Assembly (NCBI GenBank): GCA_016211245.1
Contig: JACQSQ010000013.1
Span: 796 to 64,795, forward strand
Source of the DNA: Candidatus Woesearchaeota archaeon
GTDB lineage: Archaea > Nanobdellota > Nanobdellia > Woesearchaeales > GW2011-AR4
Direction: 5' to 3'
Length of the DNA stretch: 64,000 nt
This document shows positions 1 to 64,000 of the stretch, piece after piece. The notes below the pieces were generated by a model, which saw only the letters and a list, made by a program, of their open reading frames with translations, was not told the DNA's origin and ran no database searches. The translations under genes and the position numbers were made by a program. Positions within the stretch are counted from its first letter, which is position 1. Each line of letters starts with the position of its first letter.

Positions 1-84
1 AGAGTTGATGATTCAGATGACGAAGATGAAGGTAACTAAGGTGATAGGAATAAATTTAAATAGAACCTTGTTTGATGATATGGT

Positions 85-354
85 ATGAACTTAAAAATAA
101 TTTTAGATGTGGCTTTCTCTCTATTTACATTGTTATTCACAGTTATATTCCCTTTGATTAATCTTATAAAGCTTGATGCTATTTTAAAAAAGCTTTATGA
201 AAAAGGAAAAAATGATTGGATGTTTAAACTTTATTCTAGGGGCGAATCAACTCAAGAGAAATATAGGTCTTACGCTAAATTATTTTATTCAATTTCTATT
301 ATTGGTGGAATTATACTTCTTATAGCTTGGTTTACTTATCCATGGAATTATTAA
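85..354 (+). CDS. small hydrophobic membrane protein (2 TM), possible immunity/cassette protein
   Basis: ORF track; two hydrophobic helices; followed 3 nt after its stop by a repeat element (357-414) shared with other cassettes. Confidence 0.35.
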   Translation: MNLKIILDVAFSLFTLLFTVIFPLINLIKLDAILKKLYEKGKNDWMFKLYSRGESTQEKYRSYAKLFYSISIIGGIILLIAWFTYPWNY

Positions 355-356
355 GA

Positions 357-414
357 GGCACGTAAAGTTCTTTTTTCCAAATAGCATACCCTCCGTCAGA
401 AAAGACTTATAAAC
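357..414. repeat. cassette-3' repeat copy A (core GGCACGTAAAGTTCTTTT + box CTCCGTCAGAAAAGACTTATAAAC)
   Basis: Direct sequence similarity to copies at 2303-2370 and 3691-3777; begins 3 nt after stop of ORF 85-354. Confidence 0.55.
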
Positions 415-497
415 TTTACAAATTCTGGAATTTATCCTTTAAGTTTCTTGGTTAATTCATCTTCTTATAATGATAATGTGACAGGGGTGGCTGTTTC

Positions 498-1823
498 ATG
501 AAGCCACTAAATTACATAAGGAACATTGCAATAATTTTAGCATTTTTGATAATTAGTTTGCCATTTATATATGCAGATGAATTAAATTTAGTTACAGATG
601 AGAATGGTAACTTAATAACTGGAGACTCTTTTTATAGAGAATATAATGAGTTAAATCAGTTAATCAGAATTAGAAGTGGAAATTTAAGTAACGGCCAAAT
701 ATTAGAGGAATTTATCTGGCATCCTACGGAAGAAAGGATTTTAGTAAAAGATGTATTTTCAAATGGAGTATTAAATTATAGTGTATATTACGTCAACAAA
801 AATTACGTACATATTGAAAATTCATCGGGAAATTACAGCGAAAAATATGTTTATCAAGACAACGCTTTAGTTGCACAAGTTACGACAGATGGTCAAAAGC
901 AGTTTATACATTCAGACCATCTTGGAAGTAATTCATTAATCACGAATGCATCTGGAAATATAATAGAAAATTCATTTTATTCCCCGTTTGGGGAGATATT
1001 AAATGGCGGCGGCTCTAGATATGATTATAACGGAAAAGAGCAAGATACACAAACCAAGGAATACGATTATGGGGCAAGAATGTATAAATCAGAATGGGGA
1101 AAATTTATTGCGCCAGATACATTAACTCAGTATATTTATGAACCTCAATTTTTTAATCATTATGCTTATACTAAGAACAATCCATACAAGTTTATAGACC
1201 CGAATGGTCATGTTGTAGTCTACTTTTACGGGTATAGCACAACTTCCAGTGGCGGTTCTAGTGATTTAGAAAAATTGCAAGCAAGAGAAACTTCATCTCA
1301 GACATCAATATTGGCATCATATAACAGATTAGATTCCGTTAAAGAATTAGTTAAATCCGAATTACAAAGAGATAAGAACCAGCCCGTTATAATTGTTGGT
1401 CATAGCTTAGGAGGCACTTCAGCTATAACCTTAAGTAATAGTCTAAAAGAAGACCATATAGAAGTGGATTTAGTAGTTACAATAGATAAAGTTGGTTTTA
1501 ATAATGTCAAACCAGATAACGTAAAGGAACTAATTAATATCAGACAAAAAGATGGTCTTGAGTTACATGGTGAGGAAATTGAGGGGACAGATGAAGAACA
1601 TATTTTATCTAAAATTAAGCACACCGATATTGATAATATTGACAAAAATCCATTATTAGGAATGATACCAAAAAAAGCTGACGAACTTTATGGTAAATCT
1701 GGAGGTAATGGCGGAGGTGGGGGCGGTTCTAACGTTGAATGTTATGATAGTTGTACTAAAAGCTGTGACTCACAAGGTCATTGCTCTGCCCAAACATGCA
1801 AAACTATATGCAAATTAAAGTAA
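498..1823 (+). CDS. secreted RHS repeat-associated core domain protein with C-terminal alpha/beta-hydrolase (lipase/esterase-like, GHSLGG) toxin tip and Cys-rich tail
   Basis: N-terminal signal peptide (MKPLNYIRNIAIILAFLIISLPFIYA); YD repeats; RHS core signature HSDHLGS...YSPFGE...RYDYNGKEQD...YDYGARMYKSEWGKFIAPD...NPYKFIDPNGH; downstream GxSxG nucleophile elbow VIIVGHSLGG; Gly-run then CxxxC-rich tail. Confidence 0.75.
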   Translation: MKPLNYIRNIAIILAFLIISLPFIYADELNLVTDENGNLITGDSFYREYNELNQLIRIRSGNLSNGQILEEFIWHPTEERILVKDVFSNGVLNYSVYYVNKNYVHIENSSGNYSEKYVYQDNALVAQVTTDGQKQFIHSDHLGSNSLITNASGNIIENSFYSPFGEILNGGGSRYDYNGKEQDTQTKEYDYGARMYKSEWGKFIAPDTLTQYIYEPQFFNHYAYTKNNPYKFIDPNGHVVVYFYGYSTTSSGGSSDLEKLQARETSSQTSILASYNRLDSVKELVKSELQRDKNQPVIIVGHSLGGTSAITLSNSLKEDHIEVDLVVTIDKVGFNNVKPDNVKELINIRQKDGLELHGEEIEGTDEEHILSKIKHTDIDNIDKNPLLGMIPKKADELYGKSGGNGGGGGGSNVECYDSCTKSCDSQGHCSAQTCKTICKLK

Positions 1824-1898
1824 TAGCCCATGAAACTAAAAAGCTAATTCCTTCCAATAATGATTAAATTTAAATAAAGATTAGCTTTTAACCATACA

Positions 1899-2294
1899 AT
1901 GAAAAACATATTAAAGTGGATATTATCAGCGTATTTTTTCATATTTATATTTCCAGTTATATTTTTTACTACTCTTGGTTACTCTGACTCTAATGAAAAT
2001 CCCATTATCATACTAATCGGGATAATTTTCTTAATAGTATTCTTAACAGGAACTTATAGTTCAATTCGAATTAAAAAGAAAGAGGATTTTACTAAATTTA
2101 AACTAATGTTGCCTTTATTTATTTCATTTGTATGCTTATTTTATGGTTGGGATTTATTATCTTTTCTTTTTGGTAGAAAATGCATATTTCGAGATTGTAA
2201 CACTTATTTACTTATTTTATTAGGTTCTGGAGTTAGTGTTATTTTTTTATATCTCTATGCAAAGATAATTAAAAGATATACAAAAGAAATTTAA
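1899..2294 (+). CDS. polytopic small membrane protein, candidate immunity protein for upstream RHS toxin
   Basis: Immediately downstream of the toxin gene, four predicted TM helices; position typical of immunity genes in polymorphic toxin loci. Confidence 0.4.
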   Translation: MKNILKWILSAYFFIFIFPVIFFTTLGYSDSNENPIIILIGIIFLIVFLTGTYSSIRIKKKEDFTKFKLMLPLFISFVCLFYGWDLLSFLFGRKCIFRDCNTYLLILLGSGVSVIFLYLYAKIIKRYTKEI

Positions 2295-2302
2295 CAATTT
2301 TT

Positions 2303-2370
2303 GGTACGTAAATCTTCTCCAACGTCAATAGATTTAAATACTACTTTCTGAGTAAAAACTTACTACGATA
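2303..2370. repeat. cassette-3' repeat copy B (core GGTACGTAAATCTTCTCC + box CTTTCTGAGTAAAAACTTACTACGATA)
   Basis: Shares the 18-nt core and downstream box with copies A and C; begins 9 nt after stop of ORF 1899-2294. Confidence 0.55.
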
Positions 2371-2427
2371 GTTTCCCATAAAAAATTAGCTAAACAGGGG
2401 GAATCCATCTTCTGGGGCAAACATGAG

Positions 2428-2830
2428 GTGAAAGGCACTATTTGCAGGATAACACTCCTGCCATCTCCGCCCTTTTCACATAGATTCAATATCGTTAATG
2501 AAACTTTATCGGATAAATCAATAATTTCACATTATTTCCATCAAGGCAAGCAATTAAAAGGCAAAGAGTTCAAGACAGAAATTTACGATAGCAATTCCAA
2601 TATCTATTCGAGAACTGAAAATAATTTTAACTTTACGCAAAGAAATGCAAGCTCTTTCATTATTAATTTGCTATCTACATCATCATACACATTTGACGGA
2701 AATTTCAAATGACGCAATCCCAGCAAATAAGACAAAATATAATTACGACGCATTATCGAGAATTACTTCAATAATTAATCCTGACGGAACTACAAAAAAT
2801 ACAATTTATCGTCGACAAAAATAGAAAAAT
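2428..2830 (+). pseudogene. degraded YD-repeat (RHS-family) gene fragments in two frames
   Basis: Frame 1 (2428-2712) has EIYDSNSNIYSRTE and YTFDGN. A second frame (about 2703-2823) has YNYDALSRITSIINPDGTTKNTIY. Both are YD-repeat signatures interrupted by stops and frameshifts. Confidence 0.5.
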
Positions 2831-2978
2831 ATAAATAACGGTGTTCACATAAGAAATTTGCTGACGAAATACAATAATTCGAGATTATAGTAGCTCGGCA
2901 GGGCTGTAGCGCAATCTCGGATTGGCAGGCTTTTTTTAAAGAAAATGTTTTTATATAGTATAGCTAAGCGAATTCGTA

Positions 2979-3320
2979 ATGAACACAACCAAAATAATAA
3001 AAGAAATTAGCTTAGGGGAATTCAAAGAAATAACCTCAAAATACAAAGATAACATCATTCTTAACCCCCATGCCCTTGACCATCTGAGCGATGCCCAAAG
3101 AAAGTTATTTAAAGAGCAGAGCTTAATTGATCTTTTGCTGAAGGAAAACCCCAGAGGCATTGGCCTTCAGCGAAACGGGAGATATGCGGCGTTTTACAGG
3201 AGAAATTGGGGCTTCCTTAGGGTAATACTGGAAATTAAAGATCCAAAATTGGAGATAATAACGTTTATAAACACAGAGACTATGCCTAATCTAAAGAGAC
3301 TAGAAAATGAGACATCTTAA
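2979..3320 (+). CDS. DUF4258-like small protein (putative toxin of a two-gene TA-like module)
   Basis: Size (~113 aa), His/Arg-containing N-terminal region (NPHALDHLSDAQRK), overlaps the downstream DUF2283-like gene by 14 nt (coupled). Confidence 0.35.
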   Translation: MNTTKIIKEISLGEFKEITSKYKDNIILNPHALDHLSDAQRKLFKEQSLIDLLLKENPRGIGLQRNGRYAAFYRRNWGFLRVILEIKDPKLEIITFINTETMPNLKRLENETS

Positions 3321-3684
3321 AGCACCGGGAAGAGGAGAATACCTCTATGATTACAGGAATGATATTTTGCTATTCAAAATTAGAGATAGGAACTATGCCA
3401 TATCTGTAGAATTTGATAATTTCATAGTTGACATTGATGAAGAGGGATTCATAACTGGATTGAGAATTTTTGATGCTTCTCAGATTTTTAAGCTGTCAAA
3501 AGTTGCCTTGAATAATTTAAAGAGTTTTGAATTTCATGCAAAGGCAGAAAATGGCGTAATATCCGTTCAACTAAGGTTTGACTGCATGGTTAGAAATGCC
3601 ATAATTAAACAAGGCCATGATTTTGTCAGGGAAGCAGCAGATTCGCACATAAAAAATTCTGAGGTAATCTGCACAGTTGCATAA
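3307..3684 (+). CDS. DUF2283-like small protein (partner of DUF4258 family)
   Basis: Pattern YLYDYRNDILLFKI...DIDEEGFITGLRIFDAS resembles the DUF2283 consensus (Y..D.L.I......D.D..G.i.GiEil.AS). Confidence 0.45.
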   Translation: MRHLKAPGRGEYLYDYRNDILLFKIRDRNYAISVEFDNFIVDIDEEGFITGLRIFDASQIFKLSKVALNNLKSFEFHAKAENGVISVQLRFDCMVRNAIIKQGHDFVREAADSHIKNSEVICTVA

Positions 3685-3690
3685 GAGTAT

Positions 3691-3777
3691 TACTACTACG
3701 ACGGCTTTGCTAACTTTGGTACGTAAAGTTCTTCTAACCAAAAATCTGCTTTCTCCTCAGAAAAGCTTTTATAATCT
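3691..3777. repeat. cassette-3' repeat copy C (TACTACTACGACGG + core GGTACGTAAAGTTCTTCT + hairpin GCTTTCTCCTCAGAAAAGC)
   Basis: Best-conserved copy; follows stop of ORF 3307-3684; contains a 7-bp stem hairpin. Confidence 0.55.
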
Positions 3778-3798
3778 CTAAAATTTGAGGTGATTTTT

Positions 3799-4568
3799 AT
3801 GTATTCCGTAAGACAGATACTGGAAGAGAATTGGGGAGATTATCTTAAAAAAGATAATCCAACAATCCACCAAAAACGAGAAATCCAAAAAATGATAGAT
3901 TGCTCAAAGAATAGCTGCAATTCAAGGATATGCAACTCACGTGGAAAGAGATATGCGGACAACTGGTCAGAAAATTTGAAAAGCAATCCGCGTCCAACTC
4001 CTAGAAAGCATATCGTCTTAACAGTCCCTTATTTGCTTAGGCCAATTTTGAGAAATTGGAACAATCTCAACACTTTACTGAGATCTTCAAAATATTTTTT
4101 CAAATGCTTCACTTAGATTCACATCGAAAAACAGGGCTTGTCGTCATTCTTCACACTTTTGGCAAAGATATGAAATTTCATCCGCATTTGCATATAATAA
4201 CAAACTCAAATATTGATTTCAATTTTAAGTTCAGTAAGTTATGGAGAAAAACAGTCCTCGATAGTCTGAAACTATCATCAAACGAATACTATTACGGGTA
4301 TTATGTATGGTCAAACAATATTGAATCAAAAAATATTGCTAAGTACATAGGAAGATATGTAAGGCACCCTGCAATTGCCAATGGCAGGATAATAAGATAC
4401 AACAAAAGAGATATAATATTCTTCTATAAAGATTCAAAAGGAAAAAGGATATTGGTAAGAAAATCAGTTTTGGATTTTATCACTTGCCTTATCCAGCACA
4501 TACCACCAAGACAATTCAAAATGATAAGATATTACGGAGCCTACAATAAAAATAGTAAGGGGATTTAA
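3799..4568 (+). mobile_element. IS91-family (HUH-Y2 rolling-circle) transposase, frameshifted and truncated remnant
   Basis: SD-like GAGGTGA at 3787-3793 then ATG 3799. N-terminal Cys-rich Zn-binding segment (CSKNSCNSRICNSRGKRYADNWSENLK). HUH motif HPHLHIIT. Tyrosine pair in YIGRYVRHPAIANGRI typical of Y2 transposases. Reading frame switches near 4056-4116. Total length is much shorter than intact IS91 transposases. Confidence 0.6.
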
Positions 4569-5099: not shown

Positions 5100-6518
5100 T
5101 CAGAAAAACGATTTTATCAAGCTTATTTCCTCTTTTCCAAGGCCCTTTATCATGAACAGCACAGAAAAATAGCAGGCTATGGCCAAAGGCACTACGAGCA
5201 AAAGATGGTATTTTCCAGCAGCCAATATCAATGCACCCATTATCAAAGACGCGATTAGGGGCTTAAAAAGCAGCTTTAGGGGGTTCAAAAAAAACCCGCT
5301 CTTTGAGCTGAAGTAAAACAGCATGAAGAAGTTGAACAGCTCTGCTGATACTGTTGCTATGGCAGCTCCCTTATAGCTGTACACCGGTATAATTATCAGG
5401 TTTAAAATTACATTAAATGCCGCTGTCAGCCCTGTGACCAAAGTAAAAGCCTTCTGCTTGTCGATTGAATTCAGCAGGAACCCCATCAAATAGTTCACGA
5501 ACATCAGAACCAAAGCCCATATCAGGATTTGCAGCGCAATTGCTGAATTTATAAAGCTTTTATCATAAATCAAAAGTATGATTCTTTCAGCCAATACAGT
5601 AACGCCAATGCCGAGCGGCAATGCAAGCAATGAAAGATAGTAAAATGATTTTTTATATACTGCTGACAGCATTACAGCATCTTTTTTATGGAACTTTGAC
5701 ATGACTGGGAAGGCAACAGTCACGACAACAAACGGGATAAAGGCCAAAGTATCTATTATCTTGTATGCCGCATTATACAATCCTGTAACAGCGTAATCCT
5801 GCATGAAGGAAAGCATGACTGTATCAATCTTGAAGTAAATTGTCATGAATATTGTGGTAAACCAGAAAGGGGAGGATTTCTTAAGGACTGATTTTATGAA
5901 GGCCCAATCAAGCTGCGGCTTGAAACCGACAAGATTTTTTGATACAAGCCTGCAGATGATAAGCCAGCTTGACGCGTTTGAGAAAACAAGCACTATAAGA
6001 AGCGCTGTCAGCCCATACCCTTTGAAGAGGACAAAAGTGCCAAGGGCAAATGCAATGAGCCTTTCTGCCAAAACGTACAAAGACTGGTAGCTCTGCACCT
6101 CGTATGCATTTACAACTGCCCTGAACGGGAATGCAATATAATACATAAACATTGCAGCTGCCGCAAGCATAACTCCTGCCTTTATCTCTGCAGCCTGGCC
6201 TGTGAGGAATATTATCAGAATCGGCACTAATGAAGATATTGCAGCGAGAATAAGCTTTGCAACAAAGACTTTGCCAAGGTACTCTTTTGCCAATGAATTG
6301 TTCCTTGCTATCTCTTTTGTTATGTACAGGGTTGAGCCCAAGTCTGAGAATATCGAGAATATGCCTACAAAGGCAAAGACAAATGAGTATTTGCCCAATC
6401 CTGATTCATTTAATGTTCTTGCGATAACTACTATAAGCACAAGAGAGAGCGCTCGGCTCAGCAACTCTCCCGCTACAAGTATGCCTGTATTTCTTACCAA
6501 AGATTTCGCTGTGGACAT
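5100..6518 (-). CDS. Wzx-like oligo/polysaccharide flippase (MOP superfamily polysaccharide biosynthesis protein)
   Basis: About 12 predicted TM helices, N-terminal MSTAKSLVRNTGILVAGELLSRALSLVLIVVIARTL typical of Wzx/PST family. Confidence 0.8.
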   Translation of the reverse strand: MSTAKSLVRNTGILVAGELLSRALSLVLIVVIARTLNESGLGKYSFVFAFVGIFSIFSDLGSTLYITKEIARNNSLAKEYLGKVFVAKLILAAISSLVPILIIFLTGQAAEIKAGVMLAAAAMFMYYIAFPFRAVVNAYEVQSYQSLYVLAERLIAFALGTFVLFKGYGLTALLIVLVFSNASSWLIICRLVSKNLVGFKPQLDWAFIKSVLKKSSPFWFTTIFMTIYFKIDTVMLSFMQDYAVTGLYNAAYKIIDTLAFIPFVVVTVAFPVMSKFHKKDAVMLSAVYKKSFYYLSLLALPLGIGVTVLAERIILLIYDKSFINSAIALQILIWALVLMFVNYLMGFLLNSIDKQKAFTLVTGLTAAFNVILNLIIIPVYSYKGAAIATVSAELFNFFMLFYFSSKSGFFLNPLKLLFKPLIASLIMGALILAAGKYHLLLVVPLAIACYFSVLFMIKGLGKEEISLIKSFF

Positions 6519-31151: not shown

Positions 31152-34100
31152 TTAAACCTTTGGTTCACTCATCTTGCGCAGTATCTGATAAACGACCAAC
31201 AAAACAACAACCACAATAATCGCAGTCCAGATTATCGCAGCAAGGTTATTTTTCTTTTTCCCCGTATCCTCCATTTTATTTTCTTGTTCTGCTGGCTGTT
31301 CAGTTATGGCATCTGCTTGAATCTGGGTTTCTTCTATTGGAGCTATTGGCTCTGGTACAGGCTCAGGAGCTTTTTCTTTTGCGCCTATTGCAAATACGCT
31401 AAAACCAGGAGTTGAAGACTGGTAAAACGCATTGTTGGCATCGCTTGAAACTTTTGCCGTAGCCAATTCATTCCATTTGTCTTGGGCATATCTAAATAAT
31501 ATGACATCATCTTCATTAACCGAGTTGCTCAAAAGCCAAGCTTTTGGGACTTTAAAGCTGATGGTTATCGTTAATGCGTCGGAATCAGCAATATTTGCTT
31601 TCGTGATTTTCAAATACTGGTAAATACTCGATGCAGCATTCATGGCCAAAGGGTTTGACTCTAGGGCTTCAACAGAAAGATCAACGTTTGTCAGTGTGTT
31701 CTGGACATCGGCTTTTATCTCTGTTATTGCTATATTGTCGTTTTTTACAGCCAAAATCGCAGTTGTTCCGGCTTTAATTATATCCCACCTGCTTGATGCG
31801 GATTTGGTCACATCAACCTTAACATCTCCTCCTCCACCGCCTCCTCCCCCCCCTCCGCCTCCGCCAGAGCTGCTGCTTGAGCTGCTGCTACTGCTGCTAG
31901 ACGATGTTCCGGGAACTCCGCCGGCATAAGTTGAGAAGAGGCATGGCATTTTCCATATGCAGTAATCCGAGCCTGTTTCATTCAAACTCACGCCAGCTTG
32001 GGTGTCTCTTCTTACGCAATTTGCAAGGTTGTCATCGCAATGGTATAGCCTATCGCATGAGCCAGTTCCTTTATCTATTTGTATCATGCAGGACTTCGGA
32101 TGGAATTTGTCAACCAGTTTATTCGAAACTTCTTTGCTTAGGCCTGTATATCCGACAGTAGTGCCTGATGTGGTTGAGGTGGTGCCATTTTTGACGCCGC
32201 CAGCTGTATTCACGTTTCTGATTTCTTCGTTATGCGCAAAGCTTCTTGTTAGCCTGACATCAAGGAAGAATAAGGTTGTATTAGAAGAATTATCTCTAAG
32301 CCGTAAATTTACATTTCTAGCGGTTGTGTAGTTTATTAGTATTCCGGCGTTTGCTCCGCACTGCCTATGCAATTGTGTTTCATAAGTTCCATTGTTGTCC
32401 AAATCAAGATCCAAAATCCAGCCTGATGGCAGGCTCATATCAAATATAAAGCTGCACTTCTTGCATTTTGCCGCAGAGATTGCTGTGGTGAAATTTGAGC
32501 ATGCACTTTGCGCGCAATTACCTGCATGGTCACATATCTTTAATTTATAGTAATAAGTCTTGTTTCCGCTTAGAGTGTAATTCAATGAATTTGTGCCTGT
32601 GTCATTATACAATTCAACCTCATGCCAATTCTTGTATTTTTGGGTATTATTGTTAAAAATGCCAACATCATATAAAGTTTTGTTTAAAGTTACACAATTA
32701 GTTGAGTTATAATAGAAATCCACGCTGCCATTTGTAGGCTCATCTGTGTCGAAGCCTAATAGCGCAGCATCTGGGTATTTTTCAACATTCAAATAAACAA
32801 TTTTTGGAGCAAATGTATCTACAAATCCAGAAGCTTCAACTCCAAGACTGTTTTCCACGCAATATTGATTGCCTTTGCAGTCATAATCGTTGCAATCAGT
32901 TAGGGTGTCAAAATCCTCATCTACACCATTTCCGAAGCAGTCCTCAAATGGAATATACCCTTTATTTATCATAAAGAAGCATTCAGGATCATTTTGAGGA
33001 GACAAGCCATCACCATCACAATCAAGACTTTGATCACCGGTGCCCCAGCAGCATTCTGGTGTAAAGTCTATTGTGCCTGGTGTAAAGAATGAAGGCCCTA
33101 CAGTATCTAAAGGCGAGCTTTCATTTGTTGATTCGTTTGCTGTGGCTGAATAAAGCCTCAAATTAGCTGATAAATTCAGCAAGCCGCTGATTTTTGTGAT
33201 GTCATCCTTGTTAACACTAACCATGCCGCCTTGGATTTCGTTGCACATTTTTTGTTTCCAAGCGCTGAGTTGTATGTCTGTTGCTTTCCACTCGCTGCTA
33301 ATGCACCTATGCGCTTTTTTGAGTTCAGTTACAGAGCCATTGACGTAACTAGCCTCGTATCTGAAATATAGATCCCAGCCAACGCTGCTGCTATTTGAGT
33401 TCAAAGCGCATCCTCCTGTTGTTTTTCCATCAGAGTCCATATACCAATAGAATTTAGCAGTGTTATTTCCTGAGCCAACTCCTTGCCATGTGGTAACGCC
33501 ATTGCACATAGCGGCATCTTTAATGTTGATTACTCCAGTTCCCAAACCAAAATTGTCTTTGCTGTCTTTCATTCCGAAGTAGCATACATCACTGAATGCA
33601 GAAATACCAGTTTCCGGGCAGGGATCATTGCCTAAGGGTATTGGAGGGCTTTCCATATCCATTCCAGTGAACATCTGCATAGTGGCTGCCGAATCACACC
33701 AGCCGCTGCGCCAAGTGCCATTCAAGCTTGTGCATTGGGATTCTGTAGTTGAGTTGAACACTTTCGGCTCACACGAAGAGTAATTTGATGAGACTGTACC
33801 TGTGCTCGCTATACTCCAATTTTTCCAGAAGCATAGAGGATCAGCGTTGCATTGTGTTTGGTCAGATGCAAGTGTATAATTCCACCAGCACCTATTCCCT
33901 TTTTGGTCGCACCAACCATTATTCGCGTCAAAGCCTGTCCAGGAGCAATTTATATTTGTATTACAAGAAGATTGAAGCTTATAGTTGAAACAGTCAGTGT
34001 TATAGCTTATATCGCACATCGGATTTGGGTCTGGCAGCCACTTGCAGTTTGTCTGGTTGCTGCAAACAGTTTGTGTTTCGTACTGGAAACAGCTGAACAC

Positions 34101-37100
34101 TTGCGTTCCGTTGCCTCCAAATCCCGTAGGGTCGCACCAGCCGTTATTGCTTTTGCACATGCCATTTGTGCTGCAATCGCTGCCTAAATTAAAACATCCA
34201 GATTCACAATAGCCTCCTGTTGGAGACCAAGGGTCAAAGCGCCATGAGCAGCTTAAATTACCCCCAATTGTGGAATTTGCATTATTACAAGCAGTTTGAT
34301 TTGACATTAAAGTTTGGTTGAAATGGCATATCTCATGCCTATGGCCGCACCATCCTGTAGTGCCGCCAATGCTTCCCATATGGGCGTCAACAAACCAATA
34401 ACACCTGCTATTGCCATTACAATCGCTTTGGCTTAAAGGTGCGCATTCGTCCCATACTGAAGAATTTAAGTTGCACGTATTTGAGCCAGATGCATGCCAC
34501 TCGCAAGAAGCATTTTCCCTGGCGCAACTAGTTTGATCGCCATCATTTTGCCAGCAAACTGCAGATTTTTGGTCGCACCAGCTGCCATATGTGTCATTGA
34601 ACCATCTGCAATCATTGTCAACACAGCTTGCATTATTTGAGTACTGCCAGCAATCTTTAATGGAAGTTCCTCCGCAAAATGGATCTGTAAAGCAGCCACC
34701 GTCAGCACAATCTACTTTTGCGTCTCCATCATTATCACTACCATCAAAGCAAATTTCAGTAGCGCCTGTATCCTCTGCTGTGGATGATTTTTTGCATAGC
34801 CCAAGAGTAGCATCCCATGTGCATGAGCCATTAACTCCTCTTCCCCTTTCTACACAGGATTTCTGGTCATTACAATTTCCACATCTGTCAAGGCATGTTG
34901 TTGTGCCGGCAGAAGCGCAAGAGCCCTTTGTAGAGTCCAAAGGATCTATTTTCCAATCGCATTTGGCGTCCAAGCATTTTGTTTTTGCATTTACTTCATT
35001 ATAAACGTTGCAAGCATCACAATTATTTGAGTCACATTTGCTTACACTTCCATCTTTAAACTCCTTGCTTGCCTCGCAATAGCCAAAACCATTAGGCGCT
35101 ATGCCATCAGTGCGCCACACGCAAAACCCTAATGCTGAAGACTCGCAGGCTGTTCTTGCAGCTTCTACGTTTGTGTAATTTGTGCCATCCGTCTTGAATT
35201 CGCATCTAAAGCATCCTATATCACAGTTGCCTCCTTGAGAGCCTAACTTTGGCGCGCATCTTCCAGATGTTATAGAGGCATTTGTCAGATTGCCAGTGCC
35301 GCAATAGCTTTCTGTAACCCATAAACCACCCACACCCTTTTCACACATGTCCCTATTATCCACTAAATCGATGTCGCCTTCTTCGCCTTGGGCAAAGAAT
35401 GAATCACCCTTAAACTCGCAATGCTTTGTTGCGTTATTCCACTTGCAAGGCATATACCATGGGTTATTAGCTATTTCCTTGCATTTGCTTTCTGAGTCAT
35501 AAGCATTGTAGTCATCACAATAAGTGGCTCCTTCAGGAGGCTTTTTTAGGTTGTCCCAGCATTTTGTTGAAAATTTATTTTCAGAGCAACTACCGGCCTG
35601 CCATTCACAGCAATGAGGCAAAAATGTAGCACTATTGCATAGATTAGAATTATTAAGTAATGTACAATTTAATCCATTTGCATATATACCATTTGCTATA
35701 TCAACTGCGACAAGGGTGCTTACATTGCATTGGTTTAATGTGGTATCATACCTGCAGCCAGTTGTATTTGAGCATGAGCTTTGGTTTTGGTCGAAAATCC
35801 AGCAGCCTGGAGCAACAAAAGTGCCTCCAATTGCGCCTCCTTCAGTGCCTGCTGTAGGATCGTTGCATTTGGATCCTAGGGAATCCCACCAGCACCATGC
35901 AGAGTCAAAGCATTTTTTCTCATCTGTTATATTAGTGCAGCTAAAGACAGAAGTAAAGTTTTGATAACATGAGCCACCCCAAGTAAGGTTTTCATATACA
36001 CAACTTAATCCGTACCCATTATTTTCACAAGTGCTTTTATTGCCTTGGTGCCATTCGTCAAAACTCCAGCAGCCAACGCTTTCACACCATCCAGTTGTTG
36101 CGTAAGTAGATATTTGCCAGGTGCAGTTTTTGTTAGCATATCCTAGGGATCCTTTGCAGCTAGTTTCATCTACATTTTGCCAGCATGACCTTGTCTCGCA
36201 CCAAGGATTGTTCCAAGCGCATGTAAGGCCTGCAATTCCGGTACTCTGGCAGCCGGATTGGTTATTGTTGAATGTATAACAGTTAAATTCCTGGCAATAA
36301 TTGTACTTTGAATCCCATTTGCAATTTAATGTGTCGGTTGTGTTCGTGCATGAGGCTTGTGATTGATGCTTTGTGTCCCAGCATCCAATATCAGAACAAT
36401 AACCATAATTAGTCCAGTAACAATCAACATCTGAATTGCATGCAGCTTGTGATGTATAGTCCCAGCAGCCTCTTTGCCAGCAAGCGCCCCACTTGCAGCC
36501 TGTTGTGTTTCTGCACTTTGCCTCATTTGTTGAGATATTGACTCCACTACATTGCCAGTTTCCAAAGCAATGAGATGCACTGCCGTTAGTTGTCGTGTTC
36601 ACAGGAACTAAAGCCGGACCATATATGCAATCTAGTCCATAAGCATCAGTATCATCTTCGCAAGCCGTTTCGTTTGTGCCGTCATAATTCCAGCATTGTA
36701 TTTCTGTGCACCATGTATAGGTTTGAACTTTAGAGCCTTGCCATAAGCATGTGCCATTCAAATGACCAGAAGCATTTGCATTTTTACACCCGCTTTCTGT
36801 GTAAAAACTCCAGCAGCCAAGCTCTTCGCACCATCCTGTGCCCCAAGCATCATTTCGCCAAGTGCATTGTGAGTTATTTTGGCAGTTTGTCTTGTCAGAA
36901 TATGTCCAGCAGGTTGTTACTCCAAATGCAAAGTTGGCAAATACAAAAAATAAGAGGATAACCGCTACTAGAAAAAATAAGAATATAGATAATTGAAGCC
37001 CTCTTTTTCCTAACATTAATGCACCATTAGTTAATGTTATTTTATCATGAAAGCGCTTATATTTAAACATTCCGAAATTCAGGTTTGAGGCCCTAAAGTT

Positions 37101-37130
37101 AAGAAAACCATTAAACAATTCGAGACCCAT
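31152..37130 (-). CDS. giant (1992 aa) secreted Cys/Trp-repeat surface (glyco)protein with C-terminal TM anchor; S-layer/cell-surface protein candidate
   Basis: Signal peptide likely from Met39 (MLGKRGLQLSIFLFFLVAVILLFFVFANFAFG, start about 37016). About 1000 aa of CxW-type Cys-rich repeats. Dozens of N-X-S/T sequons. Beta-rich central region. Ser14-Gly13 linker (31827-31907). PGF-containing domain (PGF at 31401-31409). PEPVPEPIAP linker. Terminal TM helix (31179-31244) followed by RKMSEPKV. Confidence 0.8.
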   Translation of the reverse strand: MGLELFNGFLNFRASNLNFGMFKYKRFHDKITLTNGALMLGKRGLQLSIFLFFLVAVILLFFVFANFAFGVTTCWTYSDKTNCQNNSQCTWRNDAWGTGWCEELGCWSFYTESGCKNANASGHLNGTCLWQGSKVQTYTWCTEIQCWNYDGTNETACEDDTDAYGLDCIYGPALVPVNTTTNGSASHCFGNWQCSGVNISTNEAKCRNTTGCKWGACWQRGCWDYTSQAACNSDVDCYWTNYGYCSDIGCWDTKHQSQASCTNTTDTLNCKWDSKYNYCQEFNCYTFNNNQSGCQSTGIAGLTCAWNNPWCETRSCWQNVDETSCKGSLGYANKNCTWQISTYATTGWCESVGCWSFDEWHQGNKSTCENNGYGLSCVYENLTWGGSCYQNFTSVFSCTNITDEKKCFDSAWCWWDSLGSKCNDPTAGTEGGAIGGTFVAPGCWIFDQNQSSCSNTTGCRYDTTLNQCNVSTLVAVDIANGIYANGLNCTLLNNSNLCNSATFLPHCCEWQAGSCSENKFSTKCWDNLKKPPEGATYCDDYNAYDSESKCKEIANNPWYMPCKWNNATKHCEFKGDSFFAQGEEGDIDLVDNRDMCEKGVGGLWVTESYCGTGNLTNASITSGRCAPKLGSQGGNCDIGCFRCEFKTDGTNYTNVEAARTACESSALGFCVWRTDGIAPNGFGYCEASKEFKDGSVSKCDSNNCDACNVYNEVNAKTKCLDAKCDWKIDPLDSTKGSCASAGTTTCLDRCGNCNDQKSCVERGRGVNGSCTWDATLGLCKKSSTAEDTGATEICFDGSDNDGDAKVDCADGGCFTDPFCGGTSIKDCWQYSNNASCVDNDCRWFNDTYGSWCDQKSAVCWQNDGDQTSCARENASCEWHASGSNTCNLNSSVWDECAPLSQSDCNGNSRCYWFVDAHMGSIGGTTGWCGHRHEICHFNQTLMSNQTACNNANSTIGGNLSCSWRFDPWSPTGGYCESGCFNLGSDCSTNGMCKSNNGWCDPTGFGGNGTQVFSCFQYETQTVCSNQTNCKWLPDPNPMCDISYNTDCFNYKLQSSCNTNINCSWTGFDANNGWCDQKGNRCWWNYTLASDQTQCNADPLCFWKNWSIASTGTVSSNYSSCEPKVFNSTTESQCTSLNGTWRSGWCDSAATMQMFTGMDMESPPIPLGNDPCPETGISAFSDVCYFGMKDSKDNFGLGTGVINIKDAAMCNGVTTWQGVGSGNNTAKFYWYMDSDGKTTGGCALNSNSSSVGWDLYFRYEASYVNGSVTELKKAHRCISSEWKATDIQLSAWKQKMCNEIQGGMVSVNKDDITKISGLLNLSANLRLYSATANESTNESSPLDTVGPSFFTPGTIDFTPECCWGTGDQSLDCDGDGLSPQNDPECFFMINKGYIPFEDCFGNGVDEDFDTLTDCNDYDCKGNQYCVENSLGVEASGFVDTFAPKIVYLNVEKYPDAALLGFDTDEPTNGSVDFYYNSTNCVTLNKTLYDVGIFNNNTQKYKNWHEVELYNDTGTNSLNYTLSGNKTYYYKLKICDHAGNCAQSACSNFTTAISAAKCKKCSFIFDMSLPSGWILDLDLDNNGTYETQLHRQCGANAGILINYTTARNVNLRLRDNSSNTTLFFLDVRLTRSFAHNEEIRNVNTAGGVKNGTTSTTSGTTVGYTGLSKEVSNKLVDKFHPKSCMIQIDKGTGSCDRLYHCDDNLANCVRRDTQAGVSLNETGSDYCIWKMPCLFSTYAGGVPGTSSSSSSSSSSSSSGGGGGGGGGGGGGDVKVDVTKSASSRWDIIKAGTTAILAVKNDNIAITEIKADVQNTLTNVDLSVEALESNPLAMNAASSIYQYLKITKANIADSDALTITISFKVPKAWLLSNSVNEDDVILFRYAQDKWNELATAKVSSDANNAFYQSSTPGFSVFAIGAKEKAPEPVPEPIAPIEETQIQADAITEQPAEQENKMEDTGKKKNNLAAIIWTAIIVVVVLLVVYQILRKMSEPKV

Positions 37131-63780: not shown

Positions 63781-64000
63781 TTTAATTATACTTGATATAT
63801 AGGTAAAATGAAACTATTATTATGCTAATTATACAACCTAATAATACCATACACATATCTTCTTAAAGATTTCTTACGTTTACTAATAATCATATTTTCT
63901 GCCTTATTATCTTTAAATACCCAAATCCAATATGTTAAATTGTCATAAAGTTTAAAGCCGAAAATAGGATCAGAAACAATACCATGAATTTTTTCATATT

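Follow-up and report, generated by a model that had tools for sequence, protein, structure and literature searches.

The toxin gene and its conserved N-terminal half

This report concerns a gene lying near the start of a 64,000-nucleotide stretch of DNA, referred to throughout as the window, taken from contig JACQSQ010000013.1 (positions 796 to 64,795, forward strand; assembly GCA_016211245.1) of a Candidatus Woesearchaeota archaeon. The gene occupies positions 498-1823 of the forward strand, begins with ATG according to the list of open reading frames (ORFs), and encodes a protein of 441 residues that is entered at NCBI as a hypothetical protein, from a Candidatus Woesearchaeota metagenome-assembled genome (MAG) and a contig of 64,863 bp. 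The gene is intact and belongs to a family of polymorphic toxins whose members come mostly from DPANN archaea; its product carries an exchangeable toxin domain that begins after the motif DPNGH. An earlier reading of the same DNA (the original prediction) had proposed a signal peptide, YD repeats, an RHS core running to DPNGH, a GHSLGG hydrolase and a Cys-rich tail, and all of these are present, in that order and at the positions given:

498-575, forward strand: signal peptide (residues 1-26; helix at residues 3-24 in the AlphaFold2 (AF2) model; hydrophobic N-terminus kept in the family)
576-977, forward strand: YD-repeat beta-hairpin segment (residues 27-160), corresponding to the final stretch of such a shell in RHS/TcC proteins (AF2, Foldseek, phmmer)
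978-1211, forward strand: RHS repeat-associated core, or predicted aspartyl autoprotease plug (residues 161-238; TIGR03696; Asp207 and Asp234)
1212-1697, forward strand: variable toxin tip, a minimal alpha/beta serine hydrolase (residues 239-400; Ser303-Asp330-His375)
1698-1823, forward strand: Gly-run and six-Cys tail (residues 401-441 and the stop codon)

None of these features is a chance match, and the same holds for the four-transmembrane gene and the YD-type fragments found downstream. The N-terminus, MKPLNYIRNIAIILAFLIISLPFIYA followed by DE, forms a hydrophobic, signal-peptide-like helix of the Sec type that is also present in the family consensus, and cleavage is predicted to occur after IYA. 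In the AF2 model, which was built from the family alignment, this helix precedes a sheet of beta-hairpins formed by residues 30-200 with values of the predicted local distance difference test (pLDDT) above 90. Foldseek matches this half of the protein to the terminal ~190 residues of the RhsA, RhsP, TcdB2-TccC3, YenC and teneurin shells (E 1e-7 to 1e-10; the target template-modelling scores in these matches to solved shells are at most 0.23), while phmmer aligns residues 131-238 to the extreme C-terminal end of the shells of TccC2 and TccC3.

For the core itself, the original prediction had named a failure to align with TIGR03696 as one ground for its own refutation; in the event, residues 161-238 align with the full length of that NCBIfam profile (positions 1-76 of 76) at 61.4 bits, as against a cutoff of 32.5 (E 9e-17). 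The core terminates in Asp234-Pro-Asn-Gly237-His238, and alignment also bears out the DPxG(H/L) motif that had been proposed for it: Asp207, Asp234 and Gly237 are kept in at least 90% of 120 homologues, and the two aspartates align respectively with the first and second core Asp of teneurin-like and SGS proteins. In the window toxin the first Asp motif reads PDTL rather than DPxGL. Paired aspartates of the RHS/teneurin core have been identified as an aspartyl autoprotease (PMC8636562). What the protein lacks is the shell of several hundred residues that characterises a classical single-chain cocoon, as its hairpins are confined to residues ~30-200; it consists of the last turn of a YD shell together with the plug, and is therefore too small to enclose its own tip.

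The variable tip

Beyond His238 lie the 203 residues that are predicted to be released as the tip, of which about 160 make up the hydrolase domain, with the GHSLGG nucleophile elbow at residues 301-306. When residues 239-441 were used as query in an exhaustive HMMER search, 267 relatives were obtained at E<=1e-3. These fall into three groups: in the first, the domain stands behind other RHS cores (as in P0121, P0122, P0126, P0129 and the 1,447-residue P0133); in the second, the protein begins with the domain; and the third comprises many proteins of ~300 residues. In an alignment of 63 tip sequences Gly301, Gly305 and His375 are invariant, and His302, Ser303, Asp330 and Asp379 are conserved in at least 90%; the conservation of Ser303, Asp330 and His375 points to a Ser-Asp-His triad in the canonical order. 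An AF2 model of the tip made from the same alignment has a pLDDT of 85.7, and its best Foldseek matches are type II and polyketide synthase (PKS) thioesterases and the minimal lipases LipA (from Bacillus) and Lip_vut1, with E values of 7e-6 to 1e-4 against the thioesterases and LipA.

The Pfam alpha/beta-hydrolase matches around GHSLGG are marginal. The best is Lipase_3 (PF01764), which scores 21.5 bits with the whole protein and 22.4 bits with the isolated tip, against a cutoff of 22; among the 63 tip relatives, Thioesterase is matched by 35 and Lipase_3 by eight. Of the lipase-like tip, phospholipase or esterase, that had originally been proposed, the alpha/beta serine hydrolase with its triad thus stands, while the term "lipase" turns out to be over-specific. 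The safe reading of the sequence and its relatives is that the tip is probably a small, lid-less serine esterase or thioesterase-like enzyme, for which lipase or phospholipase activity is possible. Tips of alpha/beta-hydrolase type are already known from bacterial RHS toxins, namely Tox-ABhydrolase-1 to -3 (PMC3482391).

The last 30 residues of the window toxin contain six cysteines and are preceded by a run of glycines. Such Gly-run tails, with two, four or six Cys, occur in roughly 20 of the 120 aligned family members (P0002, P0003, P0005, P0015, P0024, P0044 and P0054 among them), following toxin domains that are unrelated to one another, and the tail looks like a separate C-terminal module.

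A polymorphic family of archaeal toxins

In all, 152 homologues of the window toxin were found, most of them 390-470 residues long and 40-70% identical to it over the first ~54% of its length. Column conservation in the alignment of 120 of these is 0.5-0.8 over residues 30-238 and falls to ~0.1 directly after His238, so that the part common to the homologues is residues 1-238 only; this abrupt loss of conservation right after DPxGH is the signature of a polymorphic toxin. The check that the original prediction had proposed bears this out, as in the relatives this core is joined to a variety of tips. These are 150-230 residues long and include barnase-type ribonuclease, colicin D and Lipase_3 domains, the majority having no Pfam match, and 44 of the 57 tips taken from genome loci are singletons. 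A conserved N-terminal trafficking region joined to diverse C-terminal toxins, which is what marks out a polymorphic toxin family (Zhang et al. 2012), is accordingly what is seen here. A side observation is that in three members (P0065, P0070 and P0100) a Laminin_G_3 domain, a concanavalin-like lectin, interrupts the RHS core, with the segment YEGKEH on one side of it and TDFHFR on the other.

From which lineage the host comes is a question that the window is unable to settle for itself. From about position 5100 to its end at 64000 the ORFs scanned encode almost exclusively enzymes of glycosylation and polysaccharide synthesis, and neither tRNA, rRNA or other RNA markers nor ribosomal protein genes were found anywhere in the 64 kb; with such a gene content the window cannot prove its own lineage, and the proof has to come from the family. 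When prokaryotic genomes were scanned, one for each species, 68 loci were obtained, 59 of which carry archaeal labels, mostly DPANN; they include Woesearchaeota, Nanoarchaeota/Nanoarchaeia, Pacearchaeota, Aenigmatarchaeota and 16 cases of "uncultured Methanosarcinales archaeon". One is a chromosome-scale record of 1.16 Mb (Archaeon GW2011_AR15), and on a 232-kb Woesearchaeota contig the toxin operon lies 7 kb from genes of archaeal/eukaryotic type for S27e, S24e, Spt4 and Rpb7. The clearly bacterial matches (Rheinheimera, Oscillospiraceae) are ordinary long RHS proteins of 24-28% identity.

It is against this background that the suggestion of bacterial contamination or a chimeric contig, which would make the archaeal context an artefact, has to be judged. 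The missing RNA and ribosomal markers would be compatible with it, as would the bacterial MAG labels of a few close homologues, P0113 (Buchananbacteria, in the candidate phyla radiation), P0028 (Ignavibacteria) and L005 (Nitrospinota); such labels may stem from mis-binning, or else from transfer between DPANN archaea and the bacteria that occur together with them. However, the 59 archaeal loci, the operon close to archaeal-type genes and the distance of the nearest bacterial RHS proteins all speak against contamination, which is very unlikely, and the archaeal, DPANN-like host originally proposed is upheld. The Nitrospinota locus (L005) contains a complete set of the two upstream genes introduced below (c2 and c1) together with the toxin gene.

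Genes paired with the compact toxins

Immediately after the toxin gene there is a second gene of interest:

1899-2294, forward strand: 131-residue protein with four transmembrane (TM) segments, the candidate cognate immunity protein (hydropathy; position after the toxin)

A small TM protein is encoded next after 44 of 53 family toxins, and members of one tip cluster (T2) are paired with a single cluster of downstream genes (c7) in three cases out of three. The original prediction of a four-TM, immunity-like gene agrees with this rule as to position, but finds no counterpart in specific conservation: a search of 5.8 billion proteins gave only one homologue of the 131-residue protein (P0124, 68% identity, without genomic context). 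Among relatives that share the tip of the window toxin, P0121 is followed by a multi-TM gene that is weakly similar to the 131-residue protein (pairwise E 3e-5), while P0002 is followed by an unrelated ORF of 50 residues, where its contig ends. The protein is best described as a candidate for immunity, put forward on the strength of the family-wide positional rule rather than of specific conservation.

On the upstream side, clustering of the neighbouring genes in the loci from the species-genome scan brought out a family, here called c1, that is present in 34 loci. A member of c1 lies immediately 5' of 28 of the 54 compact genes with an intact N-terminus, and in 24 of those 28 the c1 stop codon and the toxin start codon overlap by four nucleotides (ATGA). 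Full c1 proteins are of 1,777-2,000 residues and comprise a signal peptide, SpvB, an FG-GAP propeller (FG-GAP_3), TcdB_toxin_midN and RHS_repeat; at the C-terminus, beyond the point where the shell is split, there follow further YD repeats and some 600 Asn-rich residues. There is in addition a fused form (L040, 1,645 residues), in which residues 4-1252 of c1 are followed, from L040 residue 1246, by residues 37-242 of the toxin and then by a tip. A TcB-like neighbour together with fused forms suggests that the compact protein is the C-terminal end of a BC-type toxin, separated from the rest as a miniature, TcC-like subunit. The minimal RHS toxin of 441 residues that had been proposed is real as a compact ORF but is probably not self-sufficient, as related genes are often the translationally coupled partner of a c1 gene whose product has ~1,900 residues.

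In its arrays and cassettes, too, the family behaves as is to be expected of polymorphic toxins. In tandem arrays (L006, L009, L013, L029) each additional toxin is preceded by a short 3' piece of c1, and such arrays hold several compact genes per full c1. There are also orphan cassettes, consisting of the last ~30 core residues and a tip (L022, 3589-4215; L023, 12204-12740; L052, 1805-2440), which start at profile position 182 and are each followed by a small gene, encoding a four-TM protein in L022 and L052. No orphan cassette of this kind is present in the 64-kb window.

A further conserved gene, c2, precedes c1 in 15 loci (including L008, L040, L042, L050 and L072). It encodes 573-660 residues with one TM segment, a Laminin_G_3 match being seen in one member, and may represent a third component of the toxin system. 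No TcA-like gene appears among the conserved neighbours in the family loci, though no search was aimed specifically at TcA.

A proposed mechanism

The reading preferred here, which is judged probable without being secure, is that the protein acts as an exported miniature TcC that completes and plugs the shell of c1, undergoes self-cleavage following His238 and so delivers its esterase tip. As the first step, the compact protein would be exported by the Sec route. It would then join c1, which would supply most of the cocoon from its ~1,900 residues, and would itself contribute the last strands and the plug, much as TcC does for TcB. Asp207 and Asp234 would next cut the chain after His238, freeing the tip of 203 residues, and this putative Ser-Asp-His esterase would be delivered to a neighbouring cell and there hydrolyse an ester substrate, sibling cells being shielded by the four-TM protein encoded downstream.

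A number of observations weigh against this scheme. Because a signal peptide is present on the compact protein as well, its assembly with c1 would have to be extracellular, and we know of no Tc or RHS system for which extracellular assembly of two such proteins has been shown. In 25 of the 54 compact genes there is no c1-family gene immediately 5', and the 64 kb of the window contain no full c1 gene, which means that any partner the toxin requires must come from another part of the genome; c1 may moreover be complete by itself, given its extra YD repeats and Asn-rich domains. The single homologue of the 131-residue protein leaves position as the argument for its immunity role. Lastly, the cargo of Tc toxins has been reported to be positively charged, whereas the window tip is acidic (pI 5.4), and with a pI above 8 in just 19 of 57 family tips the family offers no support for a comparable charge.

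Several of the same facts would be accommodated by supposing that the compact protein is a stand-alone secreted toxin, its N-terminal module of 238 residues sufficing for export, for surface display or target binding and for self-cleavage, with c1 not required. The conserved signal peptide, the many compact genes that have no c1 next to them, the excess of compact genes over c1 in arrays and the fact that the window toxin is intact although its c1 has gone would all be natural on such a view. However, the 24 loci with an ATGA overlap, and the duplication of the c1 3' end with each extra toxin, tie the two genes together; the fused form shows the module to be the terminal piece of a larger shell; and ~170 hairpin residues cannot enclose a tip of 200 residues. 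Nor is non-adjacency any proof of independence, as orphan tccC genes distant from tcB are common in Tc systems (PMC7861908). An independent toxin thus seems possible but somewhat unlikely, and assembly with c1 is preferred.

The surroundings of the window copy

The immediate surroundings of the toxin gene carry further features that bear on its history:

85-354, forward strand: ORF of 89 residues with two TM segments predicted by hydropathy; no Pfam match, and no homologue among the fetched loci
385-501, forward strand: 3' stub of c1 (homology over 409-498; TGA at 499-501 overlaps the toxin ATG at 498-500, as ATGA)
2485-2854, forward strand: c1 debris, two pieces in different reading frames (tblastn, RHS_repeat, TIGR01643)
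3790-4568, forward strand: probable IS91-type transposase pseudogene (ORFs 3790-4116 and 4056-4568), at the edge of the degraded region

The stub is short but clear. In tblastn, positions 409-498 are 68-76% identical to the last 28-30 residues of c1 from L003, L007, L027, L002 and L006, and the reading frame finishes with GVAVS and then TGA, about 29 c1 codons having survived upstream of the toxin. The window toxin unit is a secondary or orphan copy whose c1 has been deleted down to this stub, like the secondary units of the arrays. The 89-residue ORF further upstream may, to judge by its position, belong as immunity-type gene to an earlier toxin unit situated beyond the edge of the contig.

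Downstream of the toxin and its candidate immunity gene, positions 2485-2703 correspond to residues ~736-808 of c1 from L027 (74% identity over 73 residues, E 3e-26), and positions 2669-2854 to residues ~1073-1149 of the same protein (63% identity over 51 residues, ~1073-1123, E 1e-14), both by tblastn; within this region a small ORF at 2645-2824 matches RHS_repeat at 22.8 bits and TIGR01643 at 21.1 bits. Degraded YD-repeat fragments had been noted earlier at 2428-2830 and taken for orphan toxin cassettes. Their YD homology is real, and extends over 2485-2854, but the interpretation as cassettes was rejected, as the fragments match the interior of c1 and not tips or cores. They are instead the wreck of a second c1 gene lying beside a dead IS91 element, the two halves of which (Zn_Tnp_IS91, 36 bits; Y2_Tnp, 87 bits) are in overlapping frames and are probably a transposase gene inactivated by frameshift. 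A search of the window for further copies of the toxin returned, besides the gene at 498-1823, nothing but a fragment at 2696-2836, which forms part of the same c1 debris.

The GC content is 0.31-0.33 in the toxin region (window positions 1-4000), compared with a window average of ~0.38. The locus lies at the end of its contig, and an independent assembly of the same sample (L001, a Logan contig of 1,489 bp) stops just past the toxin gene on either side, a sign that the assembly breaks there may be driven by repeats. Low GC at a contig end and assembly breaks of this sort are both typical of repeated, mobile arrays.

Such a setting, in which the toxin gene is preceded by a c1 stub and followed by remains of c1 and a defunct IS91 element, invites the proposal that the window copy is either a silent reserve cassette, from which a main locus at another site draws by recombination, or a decaying, unexpressed remnant. 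The shift in GC, the contig end and the second assembly's breaks at both ends of the gene are in keeping with this, as is the occurrence of true orphan cassettes in the family. Against it, however, everything that the gene would need is intact (the ORF with its start codon, the signal peptide, both protease aspartates, the full triad and the four-TM gene downstream), and the family's orphan cassettes are unlike the window gene in having no N-terminal module, beginning as they do at the last 30 core residues. A reserve or decaying copy is for these reasons regarded as rather improbable.

Of the remaining genes, an overlapping pair at 2979-3320 and 3307-3684 (forward strand; 113 and 125 residues, the second matching DUF2283) lies between the c1 debris and the IS91 remnant and suggests a toxin-antitoxin-like module. 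The large gene cluster that fills most of the window includes, among the ORFs scanned, heptosyltransferase-like GT9 proteins, nucleotide-sugar dehydrogenases and epimerases, a carbamoyltransferase, PMT_2-type glycosyltransferases, SGNH esterases and a flippase. Within it, at 31152-37130 on the reverse strand, is an ORF of 1,992 residues that has no Pfam match at E<=1e-5; it was considered as a candidate for c1 and rejected, as it resembles c1 in size alone and has no similarity to it in sequence, and it may encode a giant surface protein. A scan for promoters and terminators gave counts equal to those expected from shuffled sequence, the consensus used being a bacterial one that does not fit an archaeon.

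Relation to known toxin systems

The closest parallel is with the TcB/TcC pair of Tc toxins (TcdB2-TccC3, YenB-YenC2). There too the genes are adjacent, the first encoding SpvB, an FG-GAP propeller, TcdB_midN and a YD shell, and the second encoding the end of the shell, an RHS-core aspartyl protease and a hypervariable C-terminal toxin; and there too extra or orphan copies of the second gene are found, as are natural fusions (PMC7861908). The adjacency is, however, a property of the family (28 of 54) more than of the window, where all that is left of c1 is the 29-codon stub and the internal debris. There are also clear differences. Whereas 97% of TcC proteins have 851-1,050 residues, of which ~680 belong to the shell (PMC7861908), the archaeal C-like subunit has ~430, or 441 in the window copy, with ~210 residues of shell and plug, and it has a Sec signal peptide of its own. 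Unlike TcB, c1 has ~600 additional Asn-rich residues at its C-terminus. The organisms concerned are DPANN archaea, the toxin genes are as a rule followed by one for a small membrane protein, and upstream there is the single-TM c2 protein of ~600 residues and, among the neighbours as clustered, nothing resembling TcA (to which, as said, no aimed search was devoted).

With toxins of the Rhs/WapA type the family shares a two-Asp core, a sharp boundary after DPxG, a candidate immunity gene downstream, arrays and orphan C-terminal cassettes, and Sec-dependent export of the compact toxin would resemble that of WapA. It differs from them in having only ~130-170 YD residues per chain, far below what a closed cocoon would take, and in the absence from the compact toxin of any PAAR, VgrG or type VI or type VII secretion system targeting domain. 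The tip, for its part, may be likened by its features to the Tox-ABhydrolase tips (PMC3482391) and to LipA, having a GHSxG elbow, the order Ser-Asp-His and a small lid-less fold, placed C-terminally on an RHS protein; the marginal Pfam matches, in which Thioesterase outnumbers Lipase_3, and the Gly/Cys tail after the domain set it apart.

Taken singly, the ingredients are familiar: RHS cores, BC proteins resembling those of Tc toxins and tips of the alpha/beta-hydrolase type have been described before, as have, more rarely, RHS toxins from archaea. RHS/Tc-type polymorphic toxins have been regarded as rare in archaea by Zhang et al. (2012; PMC3482391), who predicted RHS-type polymorphic toxins with cassettes in Methanosarcina acetivorans; these are again archaeal, but are of the classical long, "stalked" RHS kind and come from a methanogen. 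In the literature searched for any link between DPANN archaea and RHS, YD repeats, polymorphic toxins, SpvB or Tc toxins, no such system was found. Many archaeal polymorphic toxin systems were reportedly predicted by Makarova et al. in mBio in 2019; that study left aside, the literature searched contains no description of a split toxin architecture in DPANN archaea, and the compact DPANN family is apparently undescribed.

Significance

How DPANN episymbionts attack, exploit or compete for their hosts is largely unknown, and the family described here spans many DPANN genomes, is highly diversified and is arrayed. In it the RHS/Tc cocoon is apparently divided at an uncommon position, so that the C-type subunit, equipped with an export signal of its own, does not reach half the normal size; if c1 and the compact protein do assemble, they would make up a compact natural BC-type system, seemingly without a TcA partner. 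One may go further, and suppose that DPANN archaea deploy a two-part, Sec-exported BC-type toxin, assembled on the cell exterior from a TcB-like shell protein and interchangeable miniature TcC subunits of ~430 residues, that passes diverse enzymes into the cells to which these episymbionts are attached. As ester-cleaving tips would be harmless to the ether-lipid membranes of archaea, those tips would be aimed at bacteria, and the whole might serve as a cross-domain, contact-dependent weapon or as a device for host exploitation; this wider picture is speculative and is considered unlikely to hold as it stands. The window copy is orphaned yet intact, and its chief value is as an entry to the family, which, if c1 and the compact protein do assemble, would be a rich source of toxin and immunity domains of archaea that have yet to be characterised.

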